A DNA stretch of 64,000 bases from NCBI GenBank assembly GCA_963750165.1, contig CAVVPN010000003.1:3456001-3520000 (forward strand), given 5' to 3'. This document shows, one piece after another, positions 12,301 through 37,950 of this stretch. The notes under the pieces are model-generated. The model did no database searches, had not been told where the DNA came from, and worked only from the letters and a program-made list of their open reading frames with translations. The translations under genes were made by a program, and so were the position numbers. Each line of letters opens with the position of its first letter. Positions within the stretch are counted from its first letter, which is position 1. The DNA is from an uncultured Gemmataceae bacterium. GTDB taxonomy: Bacteria; Planctomycetota; Planctomycetia; Gemmatales; Gemmataceae.

Positions 12301-15300
12301 CTGGAAAGTGCTCTGGACCGTTACCACGATGGGCGTGGTCGTGGTGGGAAGCGCGAGCGTCGTGGTCGGCGGGGTGGCACTCGTCACGATGGTCAGCGTA
12401 CCGCCCGGGGACGAAGACGGTGGACTGTTCATGAACACTACGTTCTGGAGCGTGCTGGTGGTGGTGTTGACCGTCACCGGGACCGTCACGGTGGAGATGT
12501 CCACCGTCGTGCCGGTCGTGACCATGATGGTCAGGCCGGCCAGCGTCGTTTCCGTGAGCGTCACGTACTGGCTGTACTGGCCGGCAGTGACGGGCCGGGT
12601 GCCCTGGGTCAGGGAGCCGATGCTCAGGTTGGTCCGGATCGTCAGGGTGCGCTGGGCCGTGGAATTGCTGTCCGCCGAGTACAGGGCGATACCCGCGCCG
12701 GTGGTCGCGGCATCGATCAACGTCACGTTGGCGCTGAGGATGAGGGGGTTGCCGACCGTCAAGTTACCCACGGTCGTCACGTTCCCCCCGAGGGTCGTTT
12801 GCCCCGCCGCACCGGTGACCAGCCCCGTGAGCGGGGCGGCGTCGCCGACATCGCCGGTGAAGGTCGTCGTGCCAGCCGTGTTCACCGTGAGAACATGCGG
12901 CCCATCGACGGTGCCCAGGAAGCTGATGTTGCCGCCGCCCGTGGAGGTCAGGGCGACGGCATTGCCGAGGACCGTGGGCCCATAGGTTTGGTTGCCGGTG
13001 GTACTCACACTACCGTCCAGGACCGTGGCGTTGGCGACGGCGACGCTGGTCAGTGACGTGGAATTGCCGACGGCGGCGCTGAACGTGGTCACGCCGGAAC
13101 TGCTATCGCTCAGGTTGTAGCCGCCGTTGAGGGCGCTGGCGAACAGGACGGCTCCGGTGTTGTTGATCGTCACTGCGCCGCCGGTCACCTCGGTGATGCC
13201 CGTCACCGTGAGGGTGGTGCTGGTGTTGGTCAGGCTGATGGTGCCGCTGGTGTTGTTGGTGGCGTTGAAGGTGCCGACGCTGTTGGCGCCGTTCAGGGTG
13301 GTGCCGGTCGCGGACGACGTGGTCAGGGTGCCGGTGGTGCTGACCAGGCCGCCCGTCTCGGTAATGCTCGTGGAGGCGGTGGCATTGATGGCGCCGGAGG
13401 TGCTACTGACCGTGCCGAGGATGGTGATGGCGCCGGTGGATGCGCCCGTGGCCGAGAGCGTCACGGAGTTTGCGCCCGGCGCGGTCACCGCGGCCCCGGT
13501 ATCGATGTCGATGCCGACCGTGGTACTGCCGCCGCCTGCGCCAGTAACGGAGATGTTACCGCCCGTGGCGGTCACCAGCGCTGCGACGCCGTTCACGTAG
13601 ACGCCGAAGTCGCCGCTGCCGGACGTATTGCCGCCGGTTCCCTGGATGGTGACCGTGCCGGTGCCGCCCGCTGTCACGGTGCTGCTACTGTCGATTTGCA
13701 CGCCGACGTTGTTGCTGCTTGCGCCGAACCGCCGCCAAAGCCGGTGACCGAGACGTTGCCGTTGTGGGATGTCAGCGAACCGCTTTGGAGAACGTAGACG
13801 CCGATTTCGGTGCCCCCGCTGGCGCCGCCACCGGTGCCCTGGACGGTGACTGTGCCAGTACCTCCCGCGGTGATCTGGCCGCTGACGGCGACGACGACGC
13901 CGTAGGCGGTGGCACTGGCGCCGGTGCCGCCGCCGATGCCGGTGACGGAGACGTTGCCGCCGCTGCTCGTCACCTGGGAGCCGATGCCGGTCAAGTAGAC
14001 GCCGTAGACATAAGACCCGGCGCCGCCGATGCCGCCAGTGCCCATAACGGTGACCGTACCGGCGCCCCCCGCCATGATCTTGCCGCCGGTATCGAGCACG
14101 ACGCCGTCATTGCTGCCCGTGAGGCCGGCGCCGCCGCCGGTGCCGGTGACCGAGACGTTGCCGCCACCGGATGTCACCAGCGAGCCGCTGCCGGTGACCC
14201 AGACGCCGAAGTTTTCGGTCACGGCACTGGCGCCGCCGGTGCCCGTGATGCTGACGGAGCCGCTGGCGCCCGTGGTCTGGACCTTGCCGCCGCCTTCAAT
14301 CACGACCCCGGAGACACCGGTCGTTCCTCCCTTGCCCAGAAGCTGCACGGCGCCCGTGGTGCTCTGGACCGTGGCGCCGTTGATGTCGATGCCGATGAAG
14401 TTGCCCGCCGTGGTACCGGTGCTGTTGGCTGTCAAGGTCAAGGACCCGGAACCGGCCGCCGTCACGCCGGCGGTGACGGTCATGCCTCCGGTCGAGGTCA
14501 GGCTGATGTTGCCGTTGGCGGTGGCGGTGGTCGAGACGGCGCCGGTGACGCTCAGCGCGCCGGTCTGGCTGATCGTCACGTTGGACCCAGCAGCCGTGCC
14601 ACTCTGGGTGATGCCGGTCACCGCCAGGGTCGTCGAGATGTTGGTCAGGCTGATGGGGCCGCTGGTGCTGTTGGTAGCCGTGAAGTTACTGAGAGAATTG
14701 CCGGGATCGGTGAGCGTGATGCCGGTGCTGGCGCTGGCGGTCAGCGTGGCCGCGTTGATGCCGGCGCTTTGCGTGATGGCGCCGCCGGTGGAGGTCACAG
14801 TCACCGACCCGGTGCCGCTGATGGGGTTGGCCAAATTCACGCTGCTGCTGAAGTCGTAGACCAGGGCGCCGTTATTGGTGATGAAGCCCGTCGTCAGAGC
14901 ACCCGTCGTGCCGCCGTTGCCGACCTGGAGCGTGCCGGTGGAAATGTTCGTCGCGCCGGTGCCGGTCAAGGTGCCCGTCACTGAAACGGTGGCGCTACTA
15001 TTGGCGATGTCCAGGGCGCCGCCAGTGTTCACCAAACTGCCGCTGCCGCCGGGGCCGGTACCGACGTAGTTGTCCTCGACGACATTGCCGGTATTCGCAC
15101 CCGTGCCGCCGAACTGGATGCCGAAGCCCGAGTTGCCGCTGATGAGATTGGCTGCCGCCGCCGTGGCGCCGCCGATGGTGTTCCCGGAGATATCGACCTC
15201 GACGCCGACGACGTTGCCGAGGCCGCTGTCGCCGGCGGCGTCGGTGCCGATGAAGTTGCCGGCCACGGTGTTATTGCTGGCGGGGGCGCCGATGGAGGTG

Positions 15301-18300
15301 TAAATCCACACGCCAAACAGGGTGGCCCCGGCGATAACGTTGCCAGCTCCGCTGACAACCCCGCCGATGGTGTTGCCGTGGGCGCCGGCGTAAATGCTCA
15401 CGTCGTAATTGGGTTCCCCGCTCGCGGGCACCTGGGTGCCGCCCACCCTGGTGCCGATGAAGTTACCTTCGACCACGTTGTTGCTGGTTCCTCCCTGACC
15501 GTTAATCGCAACGTCCGACCCGCCGGCAGTGATGACGTTGCGCGCGGCCGGCGTGGTGCCGCCGATGGTGTTGAGAGAAGCCCCGTTGGAGATGAGCACG
15601 CCGAGGTCGGTACCGAGTATGGTGGTGCCGGTCGCGTCGAGGCCGATGATATTGCCCTGGACCTGCGTGCCCGTGGTGCCCGACTGTTCGAGGTAGACGT
15701 CCCAAAATCCGTTGGCGGAGATGACGTTACCGGCCCCCGCCGCCGTGCCGCCAATCGTGGCGTTGGCGGTGTTGTAGACATCGATACCGTACTGCGTGTT
15801 CGCGAGCGCGTTCAAACCCGCCGCATTGGTGCCGATGTAATTGCCCTCGATGCCGTTGCCGCTGCCGGCGGCATTCAGGTAGATGCCGGTGTTGGAGTTG
15901 CCGCTGATGACGTTGCCGGCCCCGGCCGTCGTGCCGCCGACGAGGTTGTTCGTCGCGCTGCTATCGATCGCCACCCCGATGCTGTTCGCCACGGCCGCCG
16001 TGCCGCCGGCGTTGGTGCCGATGTAGTTGCCTTGAATCACGTTGTTGTTGCTGGTGACCTCAATGCCGTCGCCGCCGAAACCGTTGATGACCAGCCCCAT
16101 GACCGTGGTGTTACCGGCCGCGAGGGTCAGGCCGTTCGCGCCCACGCCGGCGCTGGCGCCGTTCAGGACGATCAGGGGGGTGCCGCTGTATCCGGGTTGG
16201 GTGGTGCCGTCGATGGTGACCGCCTCGGTGACCGTCGGCAGCGCCGAGGTCGGGGTGATTGTCTGCGCACCGGATCCGATCTTGATAACGATGGTGTTGC
16301 CGCCGGCGGTCGCGTTGGTGTTGAGGATGGCCTGGCGCAGCGAGCCGGTGCCGCTGTCGGTGATGTTCGTGACCTTGAACAGGTACTCGTAGGCGCCGAT
16401 GTCGGTGCTGCCGAAGCGCGTCTGGCCGCGCTGGTCGGTGTACCCGTCCATGACCGTGGCGATCGTGAGCGTCGTCCCGCCCGACCCGAGTCCGGTCATC
16501 TGCGGCAGGTTTTGATTGGCCAGGGAGCCGGCGAACGTGATCGTGTAAAAGTCCCCGTACTGGTTCACGATCACGCTACCGCCCACCCCGGTGATGCTCG
16601 CCAGGGCGTTCAATGCGTTCTGAACCGCGACGGCAGACGCGCCGTTGAGAAGTGACGCCGTCGTTTGCCCGTTGAAGGTGAGCGTGAACGTACCCGTCGC
16701 GACGGGGACGGTGACGGACTGCACCTCCGAGACGGCCACGAGGGCGCTGTTGCCGGCACCGATGGCCGGGCTGGCCGGCAGCAGGGCCAGCGTTTGCGTC
16801 GGGCCGCCGTTGCTGGCCAGTGCGCCAAGCTGGGGGTTGAGCGGCGCGGCGATGGTCCCGGTCAGGTCGCCGCCGACCCAGCCGACGCTGCCGTCGGTCT
16901 TGCCGATCAGGTTGTTGCCATTGGAGGTGAGGAACCCCAGGCTCGGGGAATTGACATCGGGCCCGCTACTGTTGGGAAGGTTGTTCCCCGCCACGATCGT
17001 GTTGCCGATGTGCAGGTCGCCGCCGTTGTCCAGACCGCCGCCGGCGGTGGTGGCGGTGTTGCCGCTGACGGTGCAGTTGGTCAGCGTCGCGGCAAAGCCG
17101 GTGCGCAGACCGCCGCCGGAGGTGGCGGCGGTGTTGCCGCTGACGGTGCAGTTGGTCAGCGTGTCCTGGCCGTTGTTGTCGTACAGGCCGCCACCTGCAC
17201 CGTTCGTGGTGTTGCCGCTGACCGTGCAATCGGTCAGCGAGAAACGGAAGCCGGCACCGGATGCCGCCAGGCCGCCACCGCCGGTGGCTGCGTAGTTGCC
17301 GCTGACGGCGCAGTTGGTCAGATATGTGTGGCCTGTGGCTACCAGGCCGCCGCCGGTACCGCTGGAGGTGTTGCCGCTGATGGTGCAGTTGAGCATCGTC
17401 AGCGTGCCGCCGTTGGCCAGACCGCCGCCGGTAGAGGTGGCGACGTTGTTGTTGACGGTGCAGTTGAGCATCGACAGCGTGCCGCTGTTGTCCAGACCGC
17501 CGCCGTCCACGCCCTGGCCGCCGGTGACCGTCAGCCCCAACAATGCCGCTGACTTGTTGGCATTGACGATGAATACCTGGCTTGCGTTGTTGCCGCTGAT
17601 CGACAGCAGGCTCGCACCGGGGCCGGTGATCGTGGTGCGGGCCGCGTCGGTGAAGGTGATCGCGCCGCTGGTCAGGGTGATGGTCTGCGGCGTGTTGAAC
17701 AGGCTGGTGAAGATGACGGTGTCGGCGGTGGTGGCGGCGTTGGCGTTGAGGACGGCCTGGCGCAGCGAGCCGTTGCCGCTGTCGCTGGTGTTGGTGACCT
17801 TGAACTGATACTCAAAGGCGCCGATGTCGCTGTTGCCGAAGCGCGTCAGGCCGCGCTGGTCGGTCGCCGGGGCGGTAACGGCGTTGCCGGCGTTGATGGC
17901 CGGGCTGCTGGAGAGCAACGGGATCGTCTGGGTTAGGCCGCCGTAGCTGCCCAGTGTTCCCAGCTGGGCGTTGAGCGGCGCAGCGCCGGTGCCGGTCAGG
18001 TCGGAGCCGACCCAACCACTACTGCCAGTGATGTCGCTGACCAGATTGTGGCCGCCGGAGATCACCCCATCGCAGACCTCGGGGTGCGTGGGGTTCGAGT
18101 CCCCCGCGAGGATCGAATTCGTGACCGTGATACTGTAACCGCCGTAGTAATTGTCGATGGCGCCGCCAGAGCCGGCGGCAGTATTGAGGGTGAACGTGCA
18201 ATTGGTGACCGTGACGGTCCCTCGGGCCTCGATGCCGCCGCCAGAGATGCCCGTCATATTGGCTGCCACCGTGCAGTTAGAGAGGCTGAGGCTCCCGCCC

Positions 18301-19049
18301 TGGGTGAACAGCGCACCACCGTAGCCTGTCGCCGAGTTGCCGGTGAGCGTGCTGCCGGTTAACGTCATGGTGCCCGTGTTGAAGATGCCACCGGTCGTGG
18401 CGGCCGTGTTGCCACTGATGGTGCAGTTGATCAGAATCGAGGTGCCCTGCGCGTACAGGGCGCCGCCGTTGGCCGAGGAGGCGGAGTTGCCGCTAACGGT
18501 CGTGTCGGTCATGGTCAGCAGGCCGTTGCTGAAGATGCCGCCGCCGTTACCGGTTGCGGTGTTGCCGCTGACGGTGACATTGGTCAGCGACAGCGTGCCG
18601 AGGCTATAAATGCCGCCGCCGGTCAGGCCGCTATTGCCCCCGGTGACCTTCAACCCCGAGATCGAAGCCGCCGTCCCGGCGTTGAGCCAGAACACCTGCT
18701 GCGTGTTGCCGCCGCTGACCGTCACGTTCGCCGCCGGGCCGGTGATCGTGGTGAGGGCCGTGTCGGTGAAAGTGATCGCGCCGCTGGTCAGGGTGATGGT
18801 CTGCGGCGTGGCGAACACGCCGGTGGTGTCGAACGTGATCGTGTCGGCCCCCAGGTTCGAGTTCGCCTGGGCGACCGCGTCGCGGAGCGAGCCGGCACCG
18901 GTATCGTTCGTGTTGGTCACGAGGTAGTTGGCCGGAACAATACGGTCCTCAAGCGCCTCCAGGGCCAGTCGGACCCAGTGCGGCTCCTTACGCATCGGGC
19001 GGCTGACGGGGCGGGCGAATATGTTGCGGATCCAGGAACGCTTCATCAT
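318..19049 (-). CDS. Giant secreted multidomain protein (~6,240 aa): planctomycete export motif, beta-helix/choice-of-anchor-Q-like repeats, 12-aa repeat array, zincin metalloprotease, PPC-like and Ig-like domains, S53 peptidase. Broken by two single-base indels.
   Basis: ORFs 13674-19061, 9505-13701 and 318-9524 join if one G is added near 13724 and one extra C is removed near 9554. ATG at 19049 follows GGAG. Motifs: LEALEDRIVPA, GSLRDAV/GSLRQA, TDQRG..DIGA(F/Y)E, HELGHTLGLRH, EMEIALDVEW, STGD, GGTSLSAP and C-terminal ALDAIFEGL. Confidence 0.85.
900..1990 (-). other. Sedolisin (peptidase S53) catalytic domain within the giant protein
   Basis: YTPAQIRSAYG start, ExxLD catalytic Glu/Asp (EIALD), oxyanion STGD, catalytic Ser in GGTSLSAP, and YNLATGLGSP C-terminal motif. 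Boundaries are approximate. Confidence 0.9.
4161..4193 (-). other. Zinc-binding motif HEXXHXXGXXH of a metalloprotease domain within the giant protein
   Basis: Translated HELGHTLGLRH. Confidence 0.85.
5784..6360 (-). repeat. Coding tandem repeat, 36 bp / 12 aa, 16 copies (TPLPVVAAGAxI)
   Basis: Counted directly in the translation of ORF 318-9524. Confidence 0.9.
6500..11518 (-). repeat. Coding tandem repeat, 36 bp / 12 aa, about 140 copies ([LVA]-x-x-[TG]-T-L-N-[AT]-V-L-G-G)
   Basis: The 36-bp period is visible, e.g. GCCGCCGAGCACGGTGTTCAGGGTGCCGCTGCCCAC repeated from 6921. Copy number is estimated as span/36. Confidence 0.95.
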
Positions 19050-19121
19050 GGGTAACTCCAAAAAAAGGATGGAAAACCGCCCGTGTGCGGACTGAGTTCA
19101 GGGTTTACAAGGGAACACGAA

Positions 19122-24876: not shown

Positions 24877-26658
24877 CTAGCGCCCCGCCGGCGCGCTGCC
24901 GAGTTCCATCTGCGCCGCCTGCAGGATCGCGGCGGTGTCGTCGTCCTGCACCAGCGCGATCACCCGCAGGTTGGCGAAGCGCAGCGGCCGGTCGGTGCTC
25001 GGGAACTCCTGCTTGGTCGCCGCGTAATTGTCCAGGTACTTGTTGAGGTTCTTGCGCAACTCGCCCAGGTCAATGCTGGCGGTGTGCCGCAGCGCCTTGT
25101 CCTTGATGGCGACGCCCTCGACGCCGCCAGGGAAGGCGCGGACTACCTGGTGATGGAAGCGGAGCCGGTTGCCGCCCACGTAGCGGATCGTCTCCTCCAC
25201 CAGCAGCAGCCGCAACTTCACATTGCCGCCCTTCACCTCCGTGACGTTGGCCTCGATGCTCACCTTCTCGCCGGCGAGGCTGGCGCGGACGGCCACCTTC
25301 GCCCCCGCGGCCGTTTCCAGCAATGGCTCCAGCGCCGCCCGGTATGCCTCGTACTTCTGTTCGGCGGCCGCCATCGGGCCGCCACCGCCCGGCAGCACCT
25401 TGCCGTCGAGCAGCGTCGTCGGCGTGCCGCGCACCTGGTTGGGGAAGTGCTTGCGGTAGTAGTCCCAGCGAGCCTCGCTGGCGGGATTGGTCATCGGGTC
25501 CGGTCCCGGGATGTGCATGTGATACTGGATCAGCACCACGTCCCTGGGCTGGTACGTCTTGAGCAGTGCGTCGAAGGCCACGTCGGCGGCGACGCACGGC
25601 GGGCACTGCGCCCCGGTGAACAACTCCATGACGACGGCCCGGTCGCTGGTGCCCTTGCGGCCGGCGAACTCCTTCGCCTTGAACGGCGGCACCTTTTTCA
25701 GATATTCGCGGTCCGCGGCATCGTTCAAGCGTGCGTCCACCGCCTGGGCCTCGGCGGTCTTGCCCAGCCGCCGCAGCGCCGCCTCCAGGGCCGTCAACAC
25801 GGCCTTCTGGCGTTCCGGACTGGTTTTCTTGTCGAGCAACCGCTCCGCCCGCTGGGCCTGCTCCAGCGCCAGCGCCTCCATCTTCTCCTGGGCCAGCAGC
25901 AGTTTGGCCAGCTCGGCGGCGGCGTACAGGTCGTAGCGCTTGCCGTAGGTGGCGGCCACGCGGTTGACGGCCGTCGCCCACGCCCTGGCCTCGTCGGCGG
26001 TCACCTTGAATTTTTCGGGATCGCGCAGCAGGAACAGCACCAGGTCCACGACCACCGGGCTGTCGGGGTGACGCGTGACCGCCTCGCGGTACAGCCCCGG
26101 GGCCTCCTTCTTGACGCCCTTCAAGGCCGCCTGATATTCCTGGATAATCAGCGTCTTTTCACCCTGGTCCTTGGCGTCGGCCAGCTGTTTGAGCAGCTCC
26201 TGCGCCCTGGCGTGGAGGCCCGCCAGCTTTTTCAGCGGCGGCAGATCGAAGGCAATCGTCATCTCCTTGCTGATTTTACCCGCCCGGGCCGGCGCCAGGG
26301 TTGCGGCCGCCAGGGCGTCTTCGCTGCCGTAGGAGCCCCGGAAGGTCTTGCCGCCCGGAGCGACCACGCCCTCAAAGGTGTAAGTTTTGTCGCGGGCCTG
26401 CACCTCCATGCGCAGGACGCCGTTCTTGTAGGTGACGGCCTTGACCTCCTGGTTCTTGACCGGGGCGTCCAGCACAACGCCGATCCACTCCTTGTTCACC
26501 CTGGCGAACCGGAGCAGGGCCACGGGCCTGACGACGCCCTGCTCGCCCGCCACCGTGCTCAGCGTCCAGGTGCCGGTGAGCACCACGTCGCCGCCGGGCG
26601 CCAGCGGCGCCAGGCCGAGCAGCGCCAGCAGACAAAACGCGAACCGTTTGCTGTTCAT
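24877..26658 (-). CDS. Exported protein with a helical region and C-terminal thioredoxin-like (DUF1223/Omp28-like) CPPC domain, paralog 2
   Basis: Signal peptide MNSKRFAFCLLALLGLAPLAPG and motif VVMELFTGAQCPPCVAAD...LIQYHMHIP. Colinear with the neighbouring gene. Confidence 0.7.
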   Translation of the reverse strand: MNSKRFAFCLLALLGLAPLAPGGDVVLTGTWTLSTVAGEQGVVRPVALLRFARVNKEWIGVVLDAPVKNQEVKAVTYKNGVLRMEVQARDKTYTFEGVVAPGGKTFRGSYGSEDALAAATLAPARAGKISKEMTIAFDLPPLKKLAGLHARAQELLKQLADAKDQGEKTLIIQEYQAALKGVKKEAPGLYREAVTRHPDSPVVVDLVLFLLRDPEKFKVTADEARAWATAVNRVAATYGKRYDLYAAAELAKLLLAQEKMEALALEQAQRAERLLDKKTSPERQKAVLTALEAALRRLGKTAEAQAVDARLNDAADREYLKKVPPFKAKEFAGRKGTSDRAVVMELFTGAQCPPCVAADVAFDALLKTYQPRDVVLIQYHMHIPGPDPMTNPASEARWDYYRKHFPNQVRGTPTTLLDGKVLPGGGGPMAAAEQKYEAYRAALEPLLETAAGAKVAVRASLAGEKVSIEANVTEVKGGNVKLRLLLVEETIRYVGGNRLRFHHQVVRAFPGGVEGVAIKDKALRHTASIDLGELRKNLNKYLDNYAATKQEFPSTDRPLRFANLRVIALVQDDDTAAILQAAQMELGSAPAGR

Positions 26659-26689
26659 CGCAGTCTCCTTTGGCCAATGTCAGTCCTCG

Positions 26690-26753
26690 GGCGAGCGGCG
26701 CGGCGTCAGCCCGCCGGCAGAGCCACCGGCGGGCTGACGCCGCGCCGCTCGCC
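26690..26753. repeat. Palindromic repeat, family C (GGCGAGCGGCGCGGCGTCAGCCCGCCG)
   Basis: Perfect inverted arms; a second copy lies at 34210-34277. Confidence 0.85.
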
Positions 26754-26763
26754 AGACAAGAAT

Positions 26764-28554
26764 TTAGCGTCCTTCCTTGTCGCCGCCGACCTCCACCTGC
26801 GTCGCCTGCAGAATCTCGGCGGTGGTGTCGTCCTGCAGCATGGCGATCACGCGCAGGTGGGCGAAGTCCAGCGGCCGCTCGGTTTTGGGGAACGGCCGCT
26901 TGTTCGCGGCGTAGTCGTCCAGGTAACGGTTGAGGTTCTTGCGCAACTCCACCAGATTGATGTCGGCGCTATGCTTGCTGCTGCCGCCCTTGACCGCGAC
27001 GCCTTCGACGCCGCCGGGGAACGCCCGCACCACCTGATGATGGAAGCGAATCTTGTTGCCGCCGACGTAGCGGATGGTCTCCTCCACCAGCAGCAGCCGC
27101 AACTTCACGTTGCCGTTGTCCTTCAGCCCCCTTACGGTCGCCTCAATGCTCACCTTGTCGCCGATGCGGTTGGCGCGGGCCGCCAGCTTCGCCACCGACT
27201 TATCCTCCAGCAGCGGTTCGATGACGCCGCAATACTGTTTGTACTTGCCCGGCCCCTGGGCCATGCCGCCACCGCCGCCCGGCAGCACCTTGCCGTTGAA
27301 CAGCGCCGTCGGCACCCCGCGCACCGTGTCGGGGAAGAGCTTGCGGTAGTAGGCCCAGCGGGCTTCCGTGTCCGCGTTGGTCATGGGGTCAGGGCCGGGG
27401 ATGTGCAGGTGATACTGGATCAGCACCACGTCCTTCGATGGGTACGTCTTGACCAGGGCGTCGAAGGCCAGGTCGGCGGCCACGCACGGCGGACACTGGG
27501 CGCCGGTGAACAACTCCATGACCACCGCCCGGTCGCCCTTGCGGCCGGTGAACTCGTTGAGCTTGATCGGCGGCAGCTTCTTCTGATAGTCGCGGTCCAG
27601 CGCCGTAGTCACCTGATCGAGCCGCCCGGCGATGGCTTTCGCCTCGGTGGCCTTGCCGAGCGTTCGCAGCGCCCCGTGCAGGGCGGCCAGCACGTCGGCC
27701 TGCCGTTCCAGGCTGCTGTGCTGGTCGAGCAAGCGCTCGGCCCGCGTGGCCTGCTCCAGCGCCACCAGCGCCAGGTCGGACTGCATCAGCGCCAGCCTGG
27801 CGATTTCGGTGGCGGCGTACAGTTCGTAGCGCTTGCCGTGGGTGGTAGCCACCCGGTTGGCGGCGGCGGCCCAGGTCTTCACCTCGTCGGCGGTCAGCTT
27901 GGCCCTGGCGGGGTTGCGCAGCAGGGCCAGCACCACGTCCACGACCACCGGGCTGTCGGCGTTCCTGGCCACCACCTCGCGGTACAGCGGCACGGACTCC
28001 TTCTGCACGGCCTGGACTGCCGCCTTGTATTCCTTGAAGAGTTTGGCTTGCTCGTCCTTGTCCTTGGTTTTGGAGTACTGTTTCGCAATGTCCTGCACCC
28101 GGGCGTTCAACGCGGCGACCTTCTTGAGTGCCGGCACGTCGAAGGTGACGGTCATGTCCTTGGTGATTTTTTCTGCTTTGGTGGGCGACAGGCTCGCCGC
28201 CGACAGCGCCGCGTCGTTGCCGTAGGAGCCCTTGAAGTGCTTGCCTCCCGGGGCGACCACGCCTTCAAACACGGTCTCCGAGCCGGGGGCGGGTTGCACC
28301 ACCAGCCGCAGCGTGCCGTCCTTGAGCGTGACGCTCTTGACCTCGGTCTTCTTGAACGAGGCAGCCACCACGGTGCCCGTCCACTCGTTGTTCACCCTGG
28401 CAAAGCGGAGAATAGCCACTGGCCGCTCCGTCGCCGATACGCCCGACACCACGCCCAGCTTCCAGGTGCCCGTAAGATCGACCTCGCCGCCGCGCACCGC
28501 CGGCGCCAGGCTGAAGAGTGCCAGCAGACACCACGCCAACCGTTTGCTTGCCAT
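26764..28554 (-). CDS. Exported protein with thioredoxin-like (DUF1223/Omp28-like) CPPC domain, paralog 1
   Basis: Signal peptide MASKRLAWCLLALFSLAPAVRG, the same ELFTGAQCPPC motif, and RBS GAGGGAG. Confidence 0.7.
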   Translation of the reverse strand: MASKRLAWCLLALFSLAPAVRGGEVDLTGTWKLGVVSGVSATERPVAILRFARVNNEWTGTVVAASFKKTEVKSVTLKDGTLRLVVQPAPGSETVFEGVVAPGGKHFKGSYGNDAALSAASLSPTKAEKITKDMTVTFDVPALKKVAALNARVQDIAKQYSKTKDKDEQAKLFKEYKAAVQAVQKESVPLYREVVARNADSPVVVDVVLALLRNPARAKLTADEVKTWAAAANRVATTHGKRYELYAATEIARLALMQSDLALVALEQATRAERLLDQHSSLERQADVLAALHGALRTLGKATEAKAIAGRLDQVTTALDRDYQKKLPPIKLNEFTGRKGDRAVVMELFTGAQCPPCVAADLAFDALVKTYPSKDVVLIQYHLHIPGPDPMTNADTEARWAYYRKLFPDTVRGVPTALFNGKVLPGGGGGMAQGPGKYKQYCGVIEPLLEDKSVAKLAARANRIGDKVSIEATVRGLKDNGNVKLRLLLVEETIRYVGGNKIRFHHQVVRAFPGGVEGVAVKGGSSKHSADINLVELRKNLNRYLDDYAANKRPFPKTERPLDFAHLRVIAMLQDDTTAEILQATQVEVGGDKEGR

Positions 28555-28634
28555 TGCAATCTCCCTCAAACAAAACGGGATATTCCAGGTAAGGAACTGA
28601 TCTTACGGCAGCGCCGGGCCACTTGCAAGCAGGA

Positions 28635-28723: not shown

Positions 28724-28971
28724 TAGAGCGGTTCACAGCCGCGTGGATCACGCCCCGTAGGACGGCTCTCCAGAGCCGTCTCCGAGACAAGGACGGCTCT
28801 GGAGAGCCGTCCCACAGGCTGTGCGCAAACCAAGTGTGAACCGCTCTAGAGCGGTTCCCAGTCGCGTGGACTACAAGTCGTGGGACGGCTCTCCAGAGCC
28901 GTCTCCGAGACAAGGACGGCTCTGGAGAGCCGTCCCACAGGCTGTGCGCAAACCAAGTGTGAACCGCTCTA
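28724..28971. mobile_element. Two tandem MITE-like units (123-bp period) with TA-flanked terminal inverted repeats, each carrying a REP doublet
   Basis: TA-GAGCGGTTC...GAACCGCTC-TA at 28724-28848 and 28847-28971, sharing the middle TA, with near-identical right halves. Confidence 0.7.
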
Positions 28972-29239
28972 ATTCGCCTTCGCCGGCAATTTCATGTGCA
29001 GGTTGCGCACCAGGAACGCGAGCTGGTCCGCCGCCTCTTCAATGATTTTACTGGTCGGCCGGCCGGCGCCGTGGCCGGCACGCGTCTCAATGCGCGCCAG
29101 CACCGGCGCCGTACCCGTCTGGCAGTATTGCAGCCTGGCGATGAACTTGAAGCTATGGCTCGGCACCACGCGGTCGTCGGTGTCCGCGGTGGTCACCAGC
29201 GTCGCCGGGTAGCTGGTGCCCTTTTTGAGATTGTGGTAC

Positions 29240-30759
29240 CTTGGCAGTCGCACTTTTCCGAGTGCTCAAACCGCGAGATTTACGCAGTTTTTCAGCGCTT
29301 CGATGAGTTTCAGGAGTTCCGTTGCATCGGCCGACTTGGGTTTAATTAGGGCGTTCAAAGTCGCCCGCCGCAACACGGCAACCATATGACGCAACGACCA
29401 TTCACTCTCCCAGGGTCCCATCACTTGGCGCAATTCCTCCGCCTCCGGCAACTGCCGACCGGCGGTAAGATACCACACCATCACGACGCTCTGCAACGAC
29501 CACACCCACGGCGCCACCTTCTCCACCGCTTCCCGACTGTAGTGTTGTGGCGCCTCGAGGTCCAGCACCTGTTTGCTCGCCCGGAACAGTACCTCAATGG
29601 ACCAGCGCCAGGCGAACTGCGTAATCACCCACCCCACGTCCGCACGCACGTCGGTCGTGAACAGGTAGGCATCGTCCAACTTCCCGTCCGGGTCGCGCAC
29701 CACCACCACCTGCACCGGCCGCAACCCCAACACCCGCGGCCACACCGCCCGGTAGGCGAACGCCCGCAGGACGCGCTGCTCCCCGTAGACGGTCACCGTC
29801 ACCGCCTGCCACACCCAGTCCCCGGTGGCCACGCGCTTACGGTCGGCCTTGGCGGCGGCTGCTTTGGGGTTGGGCAGACGCGGCCCCTTCTGCGCCTTGC
29901 GGCCGCGCCGGCCGGGCTTGGCCTGAGGCAGACGCGGGTCGTACACGGCCGCGTCGCCGCGCAACCGGCCGACGAAGGTCACGCGCTCGTCCAGGTCCGC
30001 CAGCAGCGCTTGGGCCGCGTAAGCGCCGTCGGCCACCAGGGTAAAGCGCCGGCCGGGGAACCAGGCCAGCACTTCGGCGAGCAGCGCGCGCGCCAGCAGT
30101 GGGCAGGACGGCTGCGCCTGGCCGGGCCGGTGCAACCGGGCCAGCAAGGGCAACGCCAGGATCGGGGCGTTCGCGAAGGGCAGGCAGACGGCGACGGCGA
30201 CGACCACCCAGTTGTGCCCCGCGGCCGTGGCGGTGCGTTTGCGGGTCGAGGCGACGGCATCGCGGAACCAGCCGAGGCCCCAGACGTGCTTGCCGCGCTT
30301 GTGGGCCAGGGTGTCGTCCACCAACAGCGTGATGGTGCCGCCCAGGTGGAGGCGCGTCAGGATGAGGACGGCGACGTGGTAGGCCAACCCGGTCACGGTC
30401 CAGGCGGAGCGCGCAAAGAAGTTGTAGGTGGTGTCCAGGCCGTGGCGCCGGGAATGGTCCCGCAAGTCTTGGGGTTGGGCGGTGTCGGCGACGCGACAGA
30501 GGCGGTGCTGGCCCAGGCACATCACCCAGCCGAGCACGAGTTGGCAGTGGGTGTGGAACGAGGGCAGGGTGAAGGCCGGGGCGAGGGCTTGGACGATGGG
30601 CTGGAGAGAAGCTATCATCAGCCACATGAGGGGCTCCTTCCGGCGAGTGCATGGCTTGAGAACCTATGCACAAACTTAGGAGGAACCCCTCTCTCTTTCT
30701 GCGACAGCCCCGTGACACTATCGGTGTTCGTCTGTTCATGGAAGCGTGCGACAGTTCAG
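29240..30759 (-). mobile_element. Insertion sequence, 1,520 bp, IS701-like, with GTAC target duplication
   Basis: GTAC at 29236-29239 and 30760-30763. Imperfect terminal IRs CTTGGCAGTCGCACTTTTCC / CTGAACTGTCGCACGCTTCC. Removing the element restores the peptidase frame. Confidence 0.9.
29266..30627 (-). CDS. DDE transposase (IS701 family / DDE_5-like)
   Basis: LLVDDT, VADGAY and RWSIEVLFRASKQ motifs; intact 453-aa ORF with a GGAG RBS. Confidence 0.88.
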   Translation of the reverse strand: MWLMIASLQPIVQALAPAFTLPSFHTHCQLVLGWVMCLGQHRLCRVADTAQPQDLRDHSRRHGLDTTYNFFARSAWTVTGLAYHVAVLILTRLHLGGTITLLVDDTLAHKRGKHVWGLGWFRDAVASTRKRTATAAGHNWVVVAVAVCLPFANAPILALPLLARLHRPGQAQPSCPLLARALLAEVLAWFPGRRFTLVADGAYAAQALLADLDERVTFVGRLRGDAAVYDPRLPQAKPGRRGRKAQKGPRLPNPKAAAAKADRKRVATGDWVWQAVTVTVYGEQRVLRAFAYRAVWPRVLGLRPVQVVVVRDPDGKLDDAYLFTTDVRADVGWVITQFAWRWSIEVLFRASKQVLDLEAPQHYSREAVEKVAPWVWSLQSVVMVWYLTAGRQLPEAEELRQVMGPWESEWSLRHMVAVLRRATLNALIKPKSADATELLKLIEALKNCVNLAV

Positions 30760-32775
30760 GTACGGCGAATATTTGAGCAGCACTTTGAACTGCTCCGGGT
30801 CATCGGGGCTGCCGTAGTCATCGACCCAGTAGCGGCCCGCCGTGAACTTGTGGAAGCGCAGCATGTCCATGACGCCGACCGCCGGCAGCGCCGCGCCGAA
30901 CAGCTCCGGCCGCTGCGTCATCACGGCGCCGACCAGCAAGCCACCGTTGCTGCCGCCCTGGATCGCCAGCCGCTTCGGCTGCGTGTACTTCTCCCGAATC
31001 AAATACTCCGCCGCCGCGATGAAGTCGTCATACGCCTTCTGACGATTGAGCTTGACCGCCGCCTGGTGCCACTCCTTGCCGTACTCGCCGCCGCCGCGAA
31101 TGCACGCCTGGGCGTAGATGCCGCCCATCTCCAGCCACGCCAGCTTGGTAATCGAGAACGTTGGCGTCAGCGGGATGTTGAAGCCGCCGTAGCCGTACAG
31201 CAGTGTTGGGTTGTCGCCGTTGAGCTTCAGGCCCTTCTTGTAGCTCAGGAACATGGGCACCTTCGTACCGTCCTTGCTGTGGTAGAAGACCTGCTTGACT
31301 TCGTAGTCGTCCGGGTTGAACGGCACCTTCGGTTGGCGGAAGATTCTACTATCACCGTCCTTGAGGTTGTAGCGGTAAATGGTCGGCGGCGTTGTGAAGC
31401 TGGTGAAGGTGTAGAATGTCTCGAATTCGTTGCGCTTGCCGCTGAAGCCACCGGCGGTGCCGATGGTCGGGAACGCCACGTCGCGGACGAAGGCGCCGTC
31501 CAGCTTGTACATCTTCACCTGCGTGCTCGCGTCGTGCAGGTAATTGCACACGAACATCTCACCGATGAGGTGGGCGCCCACCATGTTATCTTTCGCCTGC
31601 GGAATGATCGCCTTCCAGTTTTTCTTGGCGGGTTTGCTCACGTCGATGGCGATGATGCGGCTGCGCGGGGCGGCGTTGTCGGTCTTGAAGAAGAACGTGC
31701 TGCCGTTATTCCCCAGGAAGGCATACGCGGCCTCGAAGTTATCAATCAAATCGACCGTCTTCGCGTCCTTCTCCTTGAGGTTCTTGTAGGTGATGCGGTA
31801 GCGGCGGTCGGTGCCCTTCCAGGTGTAAATGACGAGCCAGTTGCCGTCCTCGCTCACGTCGCTGTCGAAGCCCCATTCCTTGTGGTCGGGCCGCTCATAG
31901 ACAATGGCGTCCTCGCTCTGCGGTGTGCCGACCTTGTGGTAGCATAGCTTGGCGTTATAAACCAGGCCCTGAAACTCCTCGCCCTTCTTGGGTTCGGGGT
32001 AGCGCGTGTAGAAAAAGCCCTTGCCATCGGGCGTCCAGTCGGCGCTGGTGAACTTGACCCAGCGCAGCTCATCGGTCATCAGCTTGCCACTGGCCACGTC
32101 CATGACGTACCACTTGCTCCAGTCCGAGCCGGCCTCGCTCTTGCCGTAGGCCAGCAGCTTGCCATCATCGCTGACCGACAGGCCGCTCAGCGCCACGGTG
32201 CCGTCCTTCGACCAGGTGTTCGGGTTGATGAGCACCTTGGCCGGCGCGTCCAGCGACTTCTGCCAGTACAGCACGCTCTGGTTCTGCAAGCCGTCGTTCT
32301 TGGTGTAAAAGTAACGGCTGCCCGCCTTCAACGGGGCGGAGTAGCGCTCGTAGTTCCACAGCGCGGTCAGGCGCTTCTCGATGCGCTTGCGCTCGGGGAT
32401 GGATTCCAGGTACTTGTTCGTGACCTTGTTCTGCTCCTCGACCCAATCCTTGACCTCCGGGGATTTGCGCACGTCCTGTTCGAGCCAGCGGTAGGGGTCG
32501 GGCACCCGGGTGCCGTGCAGCGTCTCCTTGAAATCGGTGCGTTTGGTCGCGGGGTATTTGATCGACTCCTCGCCGGCGTGACTGACCGACATGAACAAAA
32601 TTCCTCCCAGGACGGCGGCGGCGCGCCAGGCTGTTCCTCGCATCGGACTCTCCTCGGGTGATGTGAACGGGCGACCGACTCCCCTCAGAGTACGCAGCGG
32701 CCGCGGCAACGGGGAGGTCGATTGCGCGAACCCGGGCAGCGGCTTCGGTTGATCCAATCTCGACGTATGAAAAAG

Positions 32776-32806
32776 TTGGCCCCCTTGGCCCCCTTGGCCC
32801 CCTTGC
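32776..32806. repeat. 9-bp tandem repeat (TTGGCCCCC x3) in a divergent promoter region
   Basis: Read directly from the sequence. Confidence 0.7.
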
Positions 32807-32967
32807 TCAGTCAACCCACGCCACCCCATGTCGCCCCGTGCCCCTACTCCGACCGCTCTTCACACCACCCCTCGCCGCTGACCTTGCCGGTTTTTCTGAA
32901 GATTCCGCCTGTCAACTGCCGAAGATGTCACGGGCGAGCGGGATGCAAGGGCTGTGAGGATGACCCC

Positions 32968-34191
32968 ATGCTGTTCCTGACCTACTGGTTCGTCCTGTTC
33001 GGCGCCGTTGTGTTCCCCGCCTACTGGCTGATCCGCCACCCGCCGACCCGGCTGGCCCTGCTGTGCATCTGTTGCGTGGTCTTTCACACGCACTTCGCCG
33101 GCCCCGCGGGCGTGCTGCCCATCGTGGTCCTGAGCGTCCTGGCGTACCTGATCGGCCGGACGCGCAACCGCACCGCCTGCCTGGCGGGCATCGCCGTGTG
33201 CGTGGCCGCGCTGGTCTTCTACAAGTACACCAAATTCCTCTGCCTGGAACTGCTCGCCAGCGTCTGGCGCCACGGCGGCACCGAATCCTTCAAGTTCCTC
33301 GGCCCGTGGGTGCCGGAGGTGCCGCCACTGGCCGTCAGCTTCTTCGTCTTCGAGTTTGTCCACTACCTCTACGATGTCCGCCGCGGCGCGGAGCCGCTCC
33401 GCTCGCCGCTGGACTTCGGCCTGTTTTCGATCTTCTGGCCCAGTATCGTTGCCGGCCCCGTCAAGCGCTACGAGGAGTTCGTGCCCGCCCTGCACCAGGG
33501 GTTGCGCAACGTTTGCAGCCGCGACGTGGCCCTGGGCTGCATCCTGATCGCCATCGGGCTGGTGAAGAAATTCGTCGCCGACAACCTGACCGCCTACCTG
33601 GAATTCCAGGTGCCGCAGTTCGCCAAACTCGGCGCCTCCGGTCAGTGGCTGGTGTTCGTGGGCATCGGTCTGCGTATCCTGTGGGACTTCAGCGGCTACA
33701 GCGACATGGCCATCGGCCTGGCGCGGTTGTTCGGCGTGCGGTTGCCGGACAACTTCCGCTGGCCGTACCTGGCCACGAGCATCACCGACTTCTGGCACCG
33801 CTGGCACATTTCGCTGAGCCGCTGGATTCGTGATTACGTTTACATCCCCATCGGCGGTAGCCGCTGCGGCCTGGTGCGCAAGGTGTTCAACGGCCTGTTC
33901 GCCTTCGCGCTGTGTGGGCTGTGGCACGGGGCAGCCTGGAACTTCCTGTTCTGGGGTCTGTACCACGGCCTGGGGTTGGCGGTGTGCTCGAACTATCGCA
34001 CCGCCCTGGGCCGCGCTGGCGAGGCCGTCCACGGCTGGTTCGACCGCAACCGCATTGCTGCCTGGGCCCTGACCATGCTGTTCGTGAACATCGGCTGGCT
34101 GTTCTTCTTCTACCCGGTGCCGGCCGCGCTGAGCATGCTCACGCTCCTGGTGGCGAACCTGAAACCCGGGTTTGGGCTGCGGCCCGGTTAA
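32968..34191 (+). CDS. MBOAT-family O-acyltransferase (AlgI/DltB-like)
   Basis: Multiple TM segments and motifs IVAGP, DFSGYSDMAIG, FWHRWHISLSRWIRDYVYIPIGG and catalytic-His GLWHGA. It has no C-terminal FIYxxF tail. Confidence 0.93.
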   Translation: MLFLTYWFVLFGAVVFPAYWLIRHPPTRLALLCICCVVFHTHFAGPAGVLPIVVLSVLAYLIGRTRNRTACLAGIAVCVAALVFYKYTKFLCLELLASVWRHGGTESFKFLGPWVPEVPPLAVSFFVFEFVHYLYDVRRGAEPLRSPLDFGLFSIFWPSIVAGPVKRYEEFVPALHQGLRNVCSRDVALGCILIAIGLVKKFVADNLTAYLEFQVPQFAKLGASGQWLVFVGIGLRILWDFSGYSDMAIGLARLFGVRLPDNFRWPYLATSITDFWHRWHISLSRWIRDYVYIPIGGSRCGLVRKVFNGLFAFALCGLWHGAAWNFLFWGLYHGLGLAVCSNYRTALGRAGEAVHGWFDRNRIAAWALTMLFVNIGWLFFFYPVPAALSMLTLLVANLKPGFGLRPG

Positions 34192-34209
34192 GAAGCAGCA
34201 TTTGGCTTT

Positions 34210-34277
34210 GGCGAGCGGCGCGGCGTCAGCCCGCCGTGCAGTCCCCGACACGGCGGGCTGACGCCGCGCCGCTCGCC
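34210..34277. repeat. Palindromic repeat, family C
   Basis: Same arms as 26690-26753 with a different loop. Confidence 0.85.
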
Positions 34278-34313
34278 AAAGAGGTAGGGACGTTTTCAAC
34301 CGGAGGGAGACCC

Positions 34314-35506
34314 ATGCAGTCCCCGACGCCCGGCCCCGGTTCCGCGTTCGACCGGCTGGTCGCACCGTGGCCGCTCCTGGTGGGGGTCGTGGCCGCCTTC
34401 CTGGCCTGCTGCCTCGCCGGACATCTGGCTGGCCGCCGCAACCACCACCGCCAGTTCCACCGCTTCCACATCCTGCTTTCGCCACAGACGCTGTATTACC
34501 CGACACCCTGCGAGGTCCGCGCCCTGGCCCGTGACCGGCTGGGCCGCGACAGGATCGTGGTCATCGTGGGTGGCAGTTCCATCACGGAGGGCTGCTGGCA
34601 GGCGCCCGCCGACCTGTGGACACTGCGGTTGCAAGCCCTGCTGGGCGACGAGTACCAGGTCATCAACCTTGGCTTCATGGGCGCCATGACGGCCGAGTTC
34701 GGGGCCACCGCCGCCGAGATGCTGACGCGCGACTACCCCCGGCTGATCCTCATCAGCGACCTGCCTCCGGGTTGGCTGGCTCCCGAGCCCGACGGCGATT
34801 CCCACAAATATTTCTTCTGGCACGCGCACGCCCGGGGCTGGCTGCTGCCCGGTTCGGAGCGCGACGCCTACCTGGCAGCGCGCGACCAGTCCGAGGCCGA
34901 CGCCCGGCGCGTGCAGGAATTGCAGGCCCAGGCCACCCTCGACCGCGGCCTGTCCTTCGAGGAACTGTGGCAGACGTTCGGTTACACGACCGCCTTTACC
35001 GTGTGGTCGCCGGTGCCGGTGGTCCACGCCCGGGCCTCCTTCGCGCAGCCGCGGCGCCGTTCCCCTGATCTGGACCAGGGCCCGCGGCCGGGCCACGTCT
35101 ACCGCCTCGCGGACCAGGGCGCGCAACTGGTTCGGATTCTGGACCCCTACCACCGCAACTCCGCGGCGGCCTGGGACGACTTCGAGCGCACGGCCCGGCG
35201 GTCCTTCCCCGAAGCGCTGCGGCGCGGACCCACCTGCTCGTGATCTGGCGAAGTCCGCCGTACCGCGCTCTGCTGAGCCCCGCGGACCAGGCGCTGCACG
35301 ACGCGGTCAGTACCGAGACCGTCCGCCGCCTGGAGCGGCTGGGCTTTTCGGCGCAGGAGATCGGCAGAGATTACACGACCGCCGACTACGCGGACCTCTG
35401 CCACCTGGTCGCCTCGGGTGGGGCGAAGATGGCTGCGGAGGTGGCGCCCCAGGTGCGGGCGCTGGCGCAGCGGCTCGGCTACACCGGCGCGGCGGCCGGG
35501 CACTGA
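34314..35506 (+). CDS. Membrane-anchored SGNH/DltD-like acyltransferase, paralog 1 (one frameshift near 35223)
   Basis: RBS GGAGGGAG, N-terminal TM, VIVGGSS block, VINLG and C-terminal DYADLCHL (DxxH). Frames were joined by comparison with the paralog. Confidence 0.7.
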
Positions 35507-35526
35507 GCCCCAGGAGGAGGAGCGAC

Positions 35527-36788
35527 ATGGACCATCCGCCGGCCCCGCACTGGTTCGACCACCTCATTGCGCCCCGCGTACTGCTGCTGGGCGTGGCCGT
35601 GGCCTTCCTGGCCTGCTGCCTCGCCGGACACCTGGCCGGCCGCCGCAACCACCACCGCGACTTCACGCGCTTTCACCAGTTGCTTTCGCCGGAGAGCCTG
35701 TACTATCCGACCGTCAACGAGGTGTGCGCCCTGGCCCGCAGCCGGCTGGACCCAAACCGGGTAGTCGTCATTGTCGGCGGCAGTTCCGTCCTGCACGGCA
35801 CCGGGCAGCCAGCCGCTCAGGTCTGGACGGATCGGTTGCAGGCTCGCCTGGGCGCCGGCTACCAGGTGCTCAACCTGGCCCAGCGGGCGGGCCGGTCGGC
35901 GGAGGTCGGGGCGGTGGTCGCGGAAATCCTCGCGCGCGACTACCCGAAGCTCATGCTCATCACCGACGCGCAGCCGGGCTGGTTGCACCCCGAGCCGGAC
36001 GGCCTGTACTTCAAGTATTTCTTCTGGAGCGCCCACTACCGTGGGCTGCTCCTGCCCGACGCCGCCCGCGACCAGCGGCTGTCCGAGACCGTGATGGACG
36101 CGGACCAGCTGGAACGGGAACTGGGCAAGGAAGCGGCCGGAAAACTGTGCATTTTGAGCGCGGCCCAGCAGGAACTGCGCACGGGGCGCGGCTGGACAGC
36201 GCCCTCGGCTTCACCGATTTGTGGACCGCCTTCGCTTACACGCGCTGCCACACCGCCTGGACGCCGCTGACGCGACATTCGTTCACGCGGCCGCGGCAGT
36301 CCTACCCGGACCCCGAGCTGATGCCGCCGCCGGTGCCGGAGCGGTACGCCCACGACAACGCCGGGCACCTGGCTCGGCTGCGCGAATTCTTCGGCGGCAA
36401 GTGCGTTCCGGACGGTGAGGGCCAGTGGGTGGAGAACCCGAAGTCGGTCAGCTGGGACTACCTGGAGCGGGCCGCGACCGCGTCCTTCCCCGAAGCGACG
36501 CGCGGCCGAACGTTGCTGCTCGTCCGCTGGGTCAGCCCTTACTACCTGCGGCAACTGGGCTCCGACGAGCAGGCCAGTTACGCCGCGGTGAGCCGGTCCA
36601 CGGTTCGCCACCTGGAGCAACTCGGCTTTGCGGCGCTGGAGTTCGGCGGGGACTACACGCCGGACGATTACGCGGATGCGGATCATCTGACGGTTTCGGG
36701 CGGTGGGAAGTTGGCGGCAGCGGTCGCCGCGCGCGTGCGAGAGCTGGCCCGGCGGCGCGGCTACGTTCACGAAGGAGAGACGCGATGA
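35527..36788 (+). CDS. Membrane-anchored SGNH/DltD-like acyltransferase, paralog 2 (one frameshift near 36185)
   Basis: RBS AGGAGG, VIVGGSS, VLNLA and DYADADHLT. Adding one G to the GGGG run gives ELRTGARLDSALGF, which aligns with paralog 1. Confidence 0.7.
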
Positions 36789-36904
36789 AGTACTGGCGTT
36801 GGCTGTGGTCGTTCCTGCTGGGCTGCTGTGTGGGCGTGGTGTTTCATTACGCCCTGTACCGCATGGGGCTGCCGGTACAGCCGTTCATTTACATGGCGTT
36901 TTGA
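36785..36904 (+). CDS. 39-aa DltX-like membrane microprotein (putative acyl shuttle)
   Basis: MKYWRWLWSFLLGCCVGVVFHYALYRMGLPVQPFIYMAF. RBS AAGGAG, ATGA overlap with the upstream stop, one TM helix and a terminal FIYxxF motif. Confidence 0.8.
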   Translation: MKYWRWLWSFLLGCCVGVVFHYALYRMGLPVQPFIYMAF

Positions 36905-36951: not shown

Positions 36952-37000
36952 GAGCGTCAGCGACCGGAGGGACACAAAACCCCTCCGGTCGCTGACGCTC
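36952..37000. repeat. 20-bp-arm palindrome downstream of the MBOAT operon (repeat element or terminator)
   Basis: GAGCGTCAGCGACCGGAGGG...CCCTCCGGTCGCTGACGCTC. Confidence 0.7.
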
Positions 37001-37657: not shown

Positions 37658-37888
37658 ATCATCAGCTGCGGCATCCGGCCGAACGCGGAACTGGCGAAAA
37701 GCGCCGGCCTGGCGGTGAACCGGGCCATCGTGGTCGATGACCAGCTGCGCACCTCCGACCCGAATGTCTTCGCGCTGGGCGAGTGTGTCGAGCACCGCGG
37801 CAAGATTTACGGCCTGACCGGCACGAACCCGCACGCCCGCTACGAGGGTTCGCGGCCGGCGGCGACGCTGAAGGTCATGGGTGTCAAG
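37658..37888 (+). pseudogene. Internal fragment of an NADH-dependent nitrite reductase large subunit (NirB-like)
   Basis: GIRPNAELAKSAGLAVNRAIVVDDQLRTSDPNVFALGECVEHRGKIYGL...YEGS...TLKVMGV. Both ends are missing. Confidence 0.7.
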
Positions 37889-37950
37889 CGGCCGAGACGC
37901 CGGCGCTGGGCGAGCCAGCCCCCGCGCCGAGCCGGCGCAGTAAGAGCGCG

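Follow-up and report, generated by a model that had tools for sequence, protein, structure and literature searches.

Two kinds of MBOAT/SGNH acylation pathway have been described in bacteria. According to the available text of a 2025 study (PMC12148441), with which its preprint agrees, the Dlt pathway combines a carrier protein with a free microprotein, whereas the other MBOAT/SGNH pathways combine acyl-CoA with a tail fused to the MBOAT protein and have neither a carrier nor a DltX-like microprotein. In both studied systems, the same text states, the tyrosine of the FxYxxF motif is the acyl carrier. The accessible parts of further papers report that the DltX tail binds DltD (PMC13653941) and that, among 185 DltX-family proteins, all but two are encoded upstream of dltA (PMC3783018). 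The locus described here belongs to the window (the whole 64-kb stretch of DNA that was analysed, G000:C3:3456001-3520000) from the host assembly G000 (9.6 Mb, 12 contigs, 93% complete). It encodes a short MBOAT acyltransferase, two SGNH paralogues and a 39-aa microprotein (Table 1). This gene set (an MBOAT gene, two paralogues with GSS and DxxH motifs and a small open reading frame (ORF) ending in FIYMAF) had been proposed in a first-pass annotation and was borne out by sequence, Pfam and motif checks. The module is real, conserved and three-part. It stands outside the Dlt pathway because the tests for DltA, DltC and DltB were all negative, and outside the fused PatA/AlgI type because its tail is not fused. 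No carrier-free split system was described in the literature searched, although the founding paper (Schultz 2023) and its supplements, which lay outside the coverage of that search, may list such systems.

In architecture, the locus resembles the DltB-DltX-DltD system of Bacillota: the MBOAT protein is short and tailless, a free single-pass microprotein ends in FxYxxF (DltX examples end in FIYNEF), and a membrane-anchored SGNH protein combines G-x-S and DxxH motifs with a DltD-like extended fold. It differs from the Dlt pathway in that neither DltA nor DltC is encoded in any locus seen, the MBOAT protein stays below the DltB cut-off and carries the cytoplasmic helix of the fused type, the peptide and the SGNH proteins have no significant sequence match to DltX and DltD, respectively, and the hosts are diderms. 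The MBOAT core is closest (35-45% identity) to the fused-tail systems PatA-PatB, AlgI-AlgJ/X, WssH-WssI/F, CcsHI and PatA1B1, and databases label the MBOAT proteins of this clade 'AlgI'. Shared with the fused PatA/AlgI type are the RDYxYIPLGG helix, the absence of a carrier protein, an SGNH partner and frequent glycan-gene neighbours. Unlike in that type, the MBOAT protein lacks the tail and the two additional helices, which are encoded as a separate gene.

A short MBOAT protein, its SGNH partners and a free motif peptide

The MBOAT gene runs from an ATG to a TAA and its product matches PF03062 at E 3.9e-25; the histidine of the GLWHG motif is invariant across 65 aligned relatives. As the first-pass annotation had noted, no FxYxxF motif is fused to this protein, the C-terminus of which reads GFGLRPG, and none of the 68 complete MBOAT proteins of the clade carries a terminal motif. 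In the alignment it ends where DltB ends, about 85 residues (two helices and the FxYxxF tail) short of the AlgI/PatA-type proteins. The structural model (predicted local distance difference test score, pLDDT, 93) has DltB 6bug as its best match (E 8.5e-12, template modelling (TM) score 0.70), a match with which no PatA/AlgI structure competed because the PDB search gave only DltB and HHAT sequences. Against the DltB model TIGR04091, the protein scores 153 bits, with the cut-off at 375, and is not a DltB orthologue by that measure. Its cytoplasmic helix reads RDYxYIPLGG, as is common in fused MBOAT proteins, whereas DltB has RDYxFMRxxF. A quick tree of 72 rows places DltB on a distant, fully supported branch and does not separate the short subtypes A, B and C and the fused group from one another (support 47 for the short proteins as one side); no order of fission and fusion is therefore claimed. 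The initial description of the cassette as dlt-like thus holds for the architecture but not for the descent of the MBOAT protein. The two other MBOAT proteins of G000 are both fused and end in FIYFQF. Fusions of an MBOAT protein with this SGNH family also exist (P0128 and P0081, 826 and 872 aa); they have no terminal FxYxxF, and P0128 contains an MBOAT protein of the short clade.

The microprotein gene reads from an ATG to a TGA, with GAAGGAGAG upstream, and overlaps the SGNH2 stop codon as ATGA, by which sequence it is predicted to be translationally coupled to SGNH2. The ORF track misses it, as had been remarked before, since it is hidden within a 159-aa frame opened by GTG. In the whole of G000, only four ATG-started ORFs of at least 25 aa end in F[IVL]YxxF, the window peptide being the sole unfused one beside an MBOAT gene, and 4.2 Mb of shuffled loci yielded no motif ORF; a chance origin of the peptide ORF is therefore excluded. 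Across 41 aligned peptides, G13, P30, P33, F34, Y36 and F39 are invariant. The collected peptides number 73 (69 distinct) and form three subtypes, ending in YxLYRxxLPxxPFIYxxF (45, including that of the window), WxxxAPxFIYVAF (11) and SKFIYVDF (17); the pattern F-Y-F in 69 of 69 distinct peptides follows from their selection. Subtypes B and C are paired with other SGNH families, which retain Ser and DxxH. Lysine and arginine are more frequent before the helix than after it in 57 of the 69 (even in 10, reversed in 2), which places the tail outside. The peptide has no Pfam or NCBIfam family at E<=1 and scores about zero against DltX; in the ESM Atlas it lies near an unnamed cluster of 39-aa proteins (0.96) and near a cluster of which 14% carry DltX (0.87), the latter serving as a lead only. 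A predicted complex of the window MBOAT protein with the peptide, with an alignment for each, gave a score of 0.16 against a mark of 0.32 and carries no weight in either direction.

A similar C-terminus occurs elsewhere in G000, where a 64-aa single-helix ORF ending in APFIYTMF follows a 612-aa gene, which we take from its N-terminus to be carbamoyltransferase-like, and a 145-aa membrane protein (G000:C12:824266-826806, minus strand). No MBOAT gene is present there, and locus L010 has a similar peptide ending in APFIYAIF. This is possibly an MBOAT-free use of the motif.

The two SGNH genes each start at an ATG preceded by a Shine-Dalgarno-like sequence, and their products are 52% identical over 387 columns. 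Each is split by the loss of one base, so that the DxxH motif of SGNH1 lies in a second frame (35216-35506); reading through with X yields products of 397 and 420 aa with no in-frame stops. A hydrophobic segment at the N-terminus, GGSS and DxxH are present in both, the catalytic residues being Ser89/Asp361/His364 in SGNH1 and Ser87/Asp384/His387 in SGNH2 in read-through numbering. Over 175 sequences of the family, Ser is conserved at 100%, Asp at 98% and His at 99%; of the canonical blocks, a 99% conserved Asn stands before the block II region and no block III Asn column is conserved at the 85% level. Pfam and NCBIfam gave weak GDSL matches at most. The fold was taken from a model of the relative L090 (pLDDT 74) instead of the broken window copies. 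In this model the SGNH fold presumed earlier is indeed predicted, and in DltD-like form: nearly all of the top 50 structural matches are SGNH/GDSL proteins (Z up to 12.6, root mean square deviation (rmsd) 3.6, 174 aligned residues), and DltD gives the longest alignments (7dxm, Z 10.8, rmsd 4.4, 277 residues; 6pfx, Z 10.1, rmsd 4.8, 282 residues), whereas PatB aligns over 176 residues only (Z 10.5, rmsd 4.1).

The pairing of the three genes is conserved. In the scan of species genomes, for which the best 80 of 576 MBOAT loci were considered, the top locus (L001, Obscuribacterales, 52%) encodes a short MBOAT protein followed by an SGNH protein and a peptide ending in PFIYAWF. Among the other 79 of these best 80, 77 encode long proteins with the fused terminal motif and two lack it; a free motif ORF, of another type, occurs in one of the 79 loci. 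A search with a clade-specific pattern gave at least 121 metagenome stretches (flanks for 80); together with relatives in the host family, these yielded the 68 complete short MBOAT proteins (393-418 aa) in 67 loci, window included. A free peptide on the same strand is present in 58 of the 67 loci and in 37 of the 38 in which both flanks reach at least 1.5 kb, which bears out the expectation that the microprotein is conserved beside homologous short MBOAT genes; eight of the nine loci lacking it have a flank below 1.5 kb. Fused tail and free peptide are mutually exclusive. The gene order (M, MBOAT; S, SGNH; P, peptide) varies between M-S-P, P-S-M, M-P-S and S-M-P, while the trio persists.

In the host family, 12 of 252 genomes have the SGNH protein, and all but one of these 12 (11 genomes) also have the peptide, one copy each; G016, which lacks the peptide, has a contig end at that place. 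With the peptide profile, no other genome was positive among the 267 searched in the host's taxonomic order, and it is this absence that is informative, as the positives were built into the profile. The SGNH family comprises 400 clusters at 50% identity (E<=1e-30), its named members pointing to Verrucomicrobiota/Opitutaceae and Obscuribacterales. It was found in none of 400 other genomes of the phylum sample, with four candidates scored per genome, and the plasmids gave no SGNH match. In four loci of subtype C (L117, L151, L162 and L175), the genes stand in the order SGNH-peptide-MBOAT and precede one for a conserved protein of 160 aa that looks secreted and matches nothing in Pfam; this protein may perhaps be a fourth component, by analogy with AlgF in alginate acetylation.

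The first-pass annotation had further supposed that two terminal transferases share one shuttle. The pair is present in the window, but it reflects a lineage-specific duplication, and 8 of the 12 family genomes show a single SGNH match. Two matches occur in G000, G499, G527 and G587 (one of them broken in G587); the copies are sisters in the window and in G499 but not in G527, so that the duplication is recurrent and not a defining trait. G527 contains a tandem MBOAT-SGNH-MBOAT-SGNH-peptide array with one peptide (L234, G527:C39), and G587 one intact and one broken MBOAT/SGNH set (L237, G587:C25).

The proposed relay and its alternatives

The MBOAT protein, the microprotein and the SGNH protein would together form a three-part trans-membrane O-acylation relay, similar to DltB-DltX-DltD but fed without a carrier protein. 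The MBOAT protein would bind a cytoplasmic acyl thioester, and His320 would activate the tyrosine of the periplasmic FIYxxF tail of the peptide. By the chemistry of DltX and PatA, the acyl group would pass from this tyrosine to the serine of the membrane-anchored SGNH protein, which would then acylate a periplasm-facing surface glycan. What AlgI/PatA-type MBOAT proteins carry in cis, the last helix and the tail, would thus be supplied in trans by the peptide. The genes with their conservation and linkage, the mutual exclusion of fused tail and free peptide, the folds, the catalytic residues and the absence of nearby carrier and ligase genes are computed results, whereas donor, acceptor and binding are deduced. 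The reading of the module as a split relay of DltX type that is fed by acyl-CoA and acylates a surface glycan is given a probability of about 0.75. As the SGNH gene is duplicated in G000, one peptide may well serve two transferases there, if both are intact.

The donor is probably an acyl-CoA such as acetyl-CoA. DltA, DltC and FkbH gave no match in the window or in 88 related loci (623,594 bases), which extend only 5-10 kb to each side, in agreement with the earlier statement that no DltA/DltC-like gene is adjacent. Since tblastn with DltC queries had missed the carriers of G000 itself, the carrier test was redone with an acyl carrier protein profile and leave-one-out controls; this profile finds 12 of the 13 controls that were left out (E<1e-4) and has no match in the related loci or the window. 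Nor does G000, at its 93% completeness, appear to encode DltA: none of its nine weak adenylation-domain matches comes near the cut-off (best 94.9 against 559.85). As the loci hold no adenylation enzyme, carrier or FkbH, G000 no DltA match over the cut-off, and the carrier domains are distant, an acyl-CoA donor is the simplest explanation, and the RDYxYIPLGG helix is suggested to mark acyl-CoA use. In Sinorhizobium meliloti pSymB (L267), a fused-tail MBOAT protein ending in PFLYQGF is encoded next to genes for an acyl carrier protein and an FkbH-like HAD protein. The combination is thus reversed at this locus, where a carrier goes together with a fused tail, and the MBOAT protein does not have the RDYxYIPLGG motif.

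The acceptor is likely a surface glycan, such as lipopolysaccharide/O-antigen, capsule or another lipid-linked glycan. In relatives, the cassette has as neighbours GT2, GT4, GT28, GtrA, Wzm/Wzt, epimerases and UDP-glucose dehydrogenase, as well as a set of transaldolase, SIS, GHMP-kinase, HAD and nucleotidyltransferase genes, which presumably represents the GDP-heptose route. Of the 27 subtype-A loci that are 8 kb or longer, 12 hold glycan genes and 5 the heptose-type set, compared with 0 of 20 control stretches. In the nearest relative (G484, 64% MBOAT identity), the cassette stands behind two GT2 genes, the best homologues of which in G000 lie on contig C10. A 'GT-C' label for the large membrane proteins beside some cassettes was dropped, as only weak PMT/YfhO matches were obtained, in 2 of 16.

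Several observations weigh against the proposed relay. The contrast of 12 of 27 with 0 of 20 is inflated because the glycan queries were drawn from those same loci, and with that query set 15 of the 27 larger subtype-A loci, like the window itself, hold no glycan genes. G000 has eight PP-binding matches, the nearest 1.16 Mb away, which leaves room for a carrier encoded elsewhere. One locus among the 38 with adequate flanks (L111) has MBOAT and SGNH genes with no peptide in view, and the locus counts overstate independence because some are near-duplicates (e.g., L116/L138 and L109/L146). With the SGNH protein, Foldseek gave no match at E<=0.001, DltD having the highest query TM (0.41, E 0.022), and the comparison of the SGNH family with the DltD profile was not significant, with no DltD family match. 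Finally, two hits on one cassette would be expected by chance in only about 1-6% of cases, as calculated from background rates of 0.075-0.23 per kb, and decay of one SGNH copy is for this reason kept in consideration.

The same relay could instead draw on a carrier protein that is charged elsewhere in the genome with an amino acid or another acyl group, as in Dlt. The DltB length and end point of the MBOAT protein, the longest SGNH alignments being with DltD, and the PP-binding and weak adenylation-domain matches of G000 would suit this explanation, and in the available text of PMC12148441 a free microprotein is otherwise described only together with DltC. It is nevertheless improbable in view of the 88 loci with no ligase or carrier, the low score of the best G000 adenylation match, the fused-type cytoplasmic helix and the long, fully supported branch of DltB. 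It is more improbable still that the peptide is merely a structural subunit completing the MBOAT fold, or that the SGNH proteins are esterases removing acyl groups. Most top structural matches are indeed GDSL esterases, and the esterase DltE also binds the DltX tail, as the accessible part of PMC13653941 reports. However, the tyrosine and both phenylalanines are conserved across three peptide subtypes in which the helix is variable, each of the three is accompanied by SGNH genes that encode Ser and DxxH, and the motif tyrosine has the carrier role in both systems treated in the accessible text of PMC12148441.

A further alternative concerns the window copy and not the family: the cassette may be decaying, with one or both frameshifts real and one working transferase or none. 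This is a serious possibility, though not the favoured one. Two breaks within 2.4 kb exceed the background, in which one-base losses affect 4 of 45 G000 orthologues of G501 genes (0.075 per kb); moreover, a repeat stands between MBOAT and SGNH1, an insertion sequence (IS) lies in the neighbouring peptidase gene, and G587 has a broken second MBOAT/SGNH copy. On the other hand, one-base losses are common in this assembly. They affect pth (peptidyl-tRNA hydrolase; G000:C3:1362152-1362702, minus strand), one of the four orthologues and the only match found for this gene, and therefore frameshifts in the G000 assembly need read support. DUF1559 genes are split in 8 of 43 cases (from 52 of 67 matches), 5 of 10 other copies of one IS carry indels (10 indels over the 10 copies), and 154 of 216 genome-wide frameshift candidates belong to the one-base-loss class, found with a detector that caught one of the two cassette breaks and one of four known ones. 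The absence of in-frame stops also argues against decay, as do a steady GC content at third codon positions (0.86-0.90 on either side of both breaks) and the retention of conserved columns: of 40, SGNH1 has 38 kept or conservatively changed and SGNH2 all 40. Low quality near the contig end was rejected as a cause, since candidate frameshifts are no denser there. On balance, both breaks are rather expected to be artefacts; a single real break is unlikely, and two real ones even less so. The first-pass annotation had spoken of a complete split-shuttle system; a split shuttle exists, but completeness of the window copy was not borne out, both SGNH genes being frameshifted. The family-level result does not depend on these frameshifts because relatives hold intact cassettes.

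The cassette in its genomic surroundings

Table 1. Coordinates of the cassette and of the adjoining palindromes within the window
Feature	Position	Strand	Basis
Short MBOAT acyltransferase, 407 aa, catalytic His320 (GLWHG)	32968..34191	+	PF03062, alignments, model
Perfect palindrome with 33-bp arms, REP-like (repetitive extragenic palindromic) dispersed repeat, in the MBOAT/SGNH1 gap	34206..34281	.	repeat scan, blastn
SGNH transferase 1, membrane-anchored, ~397 aa read through, base lost near 35221	34314..35506	+	
SGNH transferase 2, paralogue of SGNH1, ~420 aa read through, base lost in a G run near 36181	35527..36788	+	
39-aa single-pass microprotein ending PFIYMAF, Tyr36 = proposed acyl carrier	36785..36904	+	
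Perfect palindrome with 20-bp arms directly after the cassette; may be a repeat element or mark the end of a transcript	36952..37000	.	

Dispersed repeats flank and interrupt the cassette, namely the two palindromes of Table 1 and a repeat at 32760-32845, which has 250 blastn matches in G000. The palindrome between MBOAT and SGNH1 has 318 matches, 228 of them spanning the same stretch (both orientations counted), and is not part of the conserved system. Promoter and terminator scans gave nothing clearly linked to the cassette. The adjoining prolyl oligopeptidase gene (28969-32652, minus strand) is split by an IS of 1.52 kb that encodes a DDE transposase (29266-30627); G000 has 11 near-identical copies of this IS. 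Further away, the window holds three very long putative ORFs (318-19061, minus strand; 3068, 1398 and 1795 aa), none of which matches Pfam at 1e-5 and after which comes DUF4915; two tandem paralogues (593 and 601 aa; 24877-28569, minus strand) that share a CxxC motif, one of them having an Omp28-like domain; and a short piece left over from a pyridine nucleotide-disulphide oxidoreductase gene (37715-37900, plus strand). DUF1559 (PF07596), which we take to be a planctomycete hallmark, has 67 matches in G000, as fits a planctomycete host.

Significance for the family

The diderm setting, which the first-pass annotation had pointed out, is not new in itself: dlt genes were already known in Dickeya and Pectobacterium, as the available text of PMC5541007 indicates; it is the carrier-free split form that is new. 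The coupling in the published dichotomy, of a carrier with a free microprotein and of acyl-CoA with a fused tail, is broken by this family, which has a free shuttle and no carrier. The chances are about even that the family represents, in all its parts, a third, widespread bacterial MBOAT acylation architecture, with a free DltX-type shuttle fed by acyl-CoA and with neither ligase nor carrier. If so, its hosts would include Planctomycetota, Verrucomicrobiota (Opitutaceae), Obscuribacterales and further uncultured diderms, and its peptides and SGNH proteins would be co-evolving in three or more subtypes. A single free shuttle could feed duplicated transferases that have diverged towards different positions or different glycans, among them, in some hosts, a glycan derived from GDP-heptose, and the architecture may link the fused PatA/AlgI and the split Dlt systems evolutionarily.

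The finding predicts many unannotated genes of 37-60 aa beside MBOAT genes labelled 'AlgI', as well as an undescribed envelope modification in bacteria of the Planctomycetota-Verrucomicrobiota-Chlamydiota group and in Melainabacteria. It would also offer a simple system in which to test if the shuttle can be exchanged as a module and if several transferases can be served by a single one.

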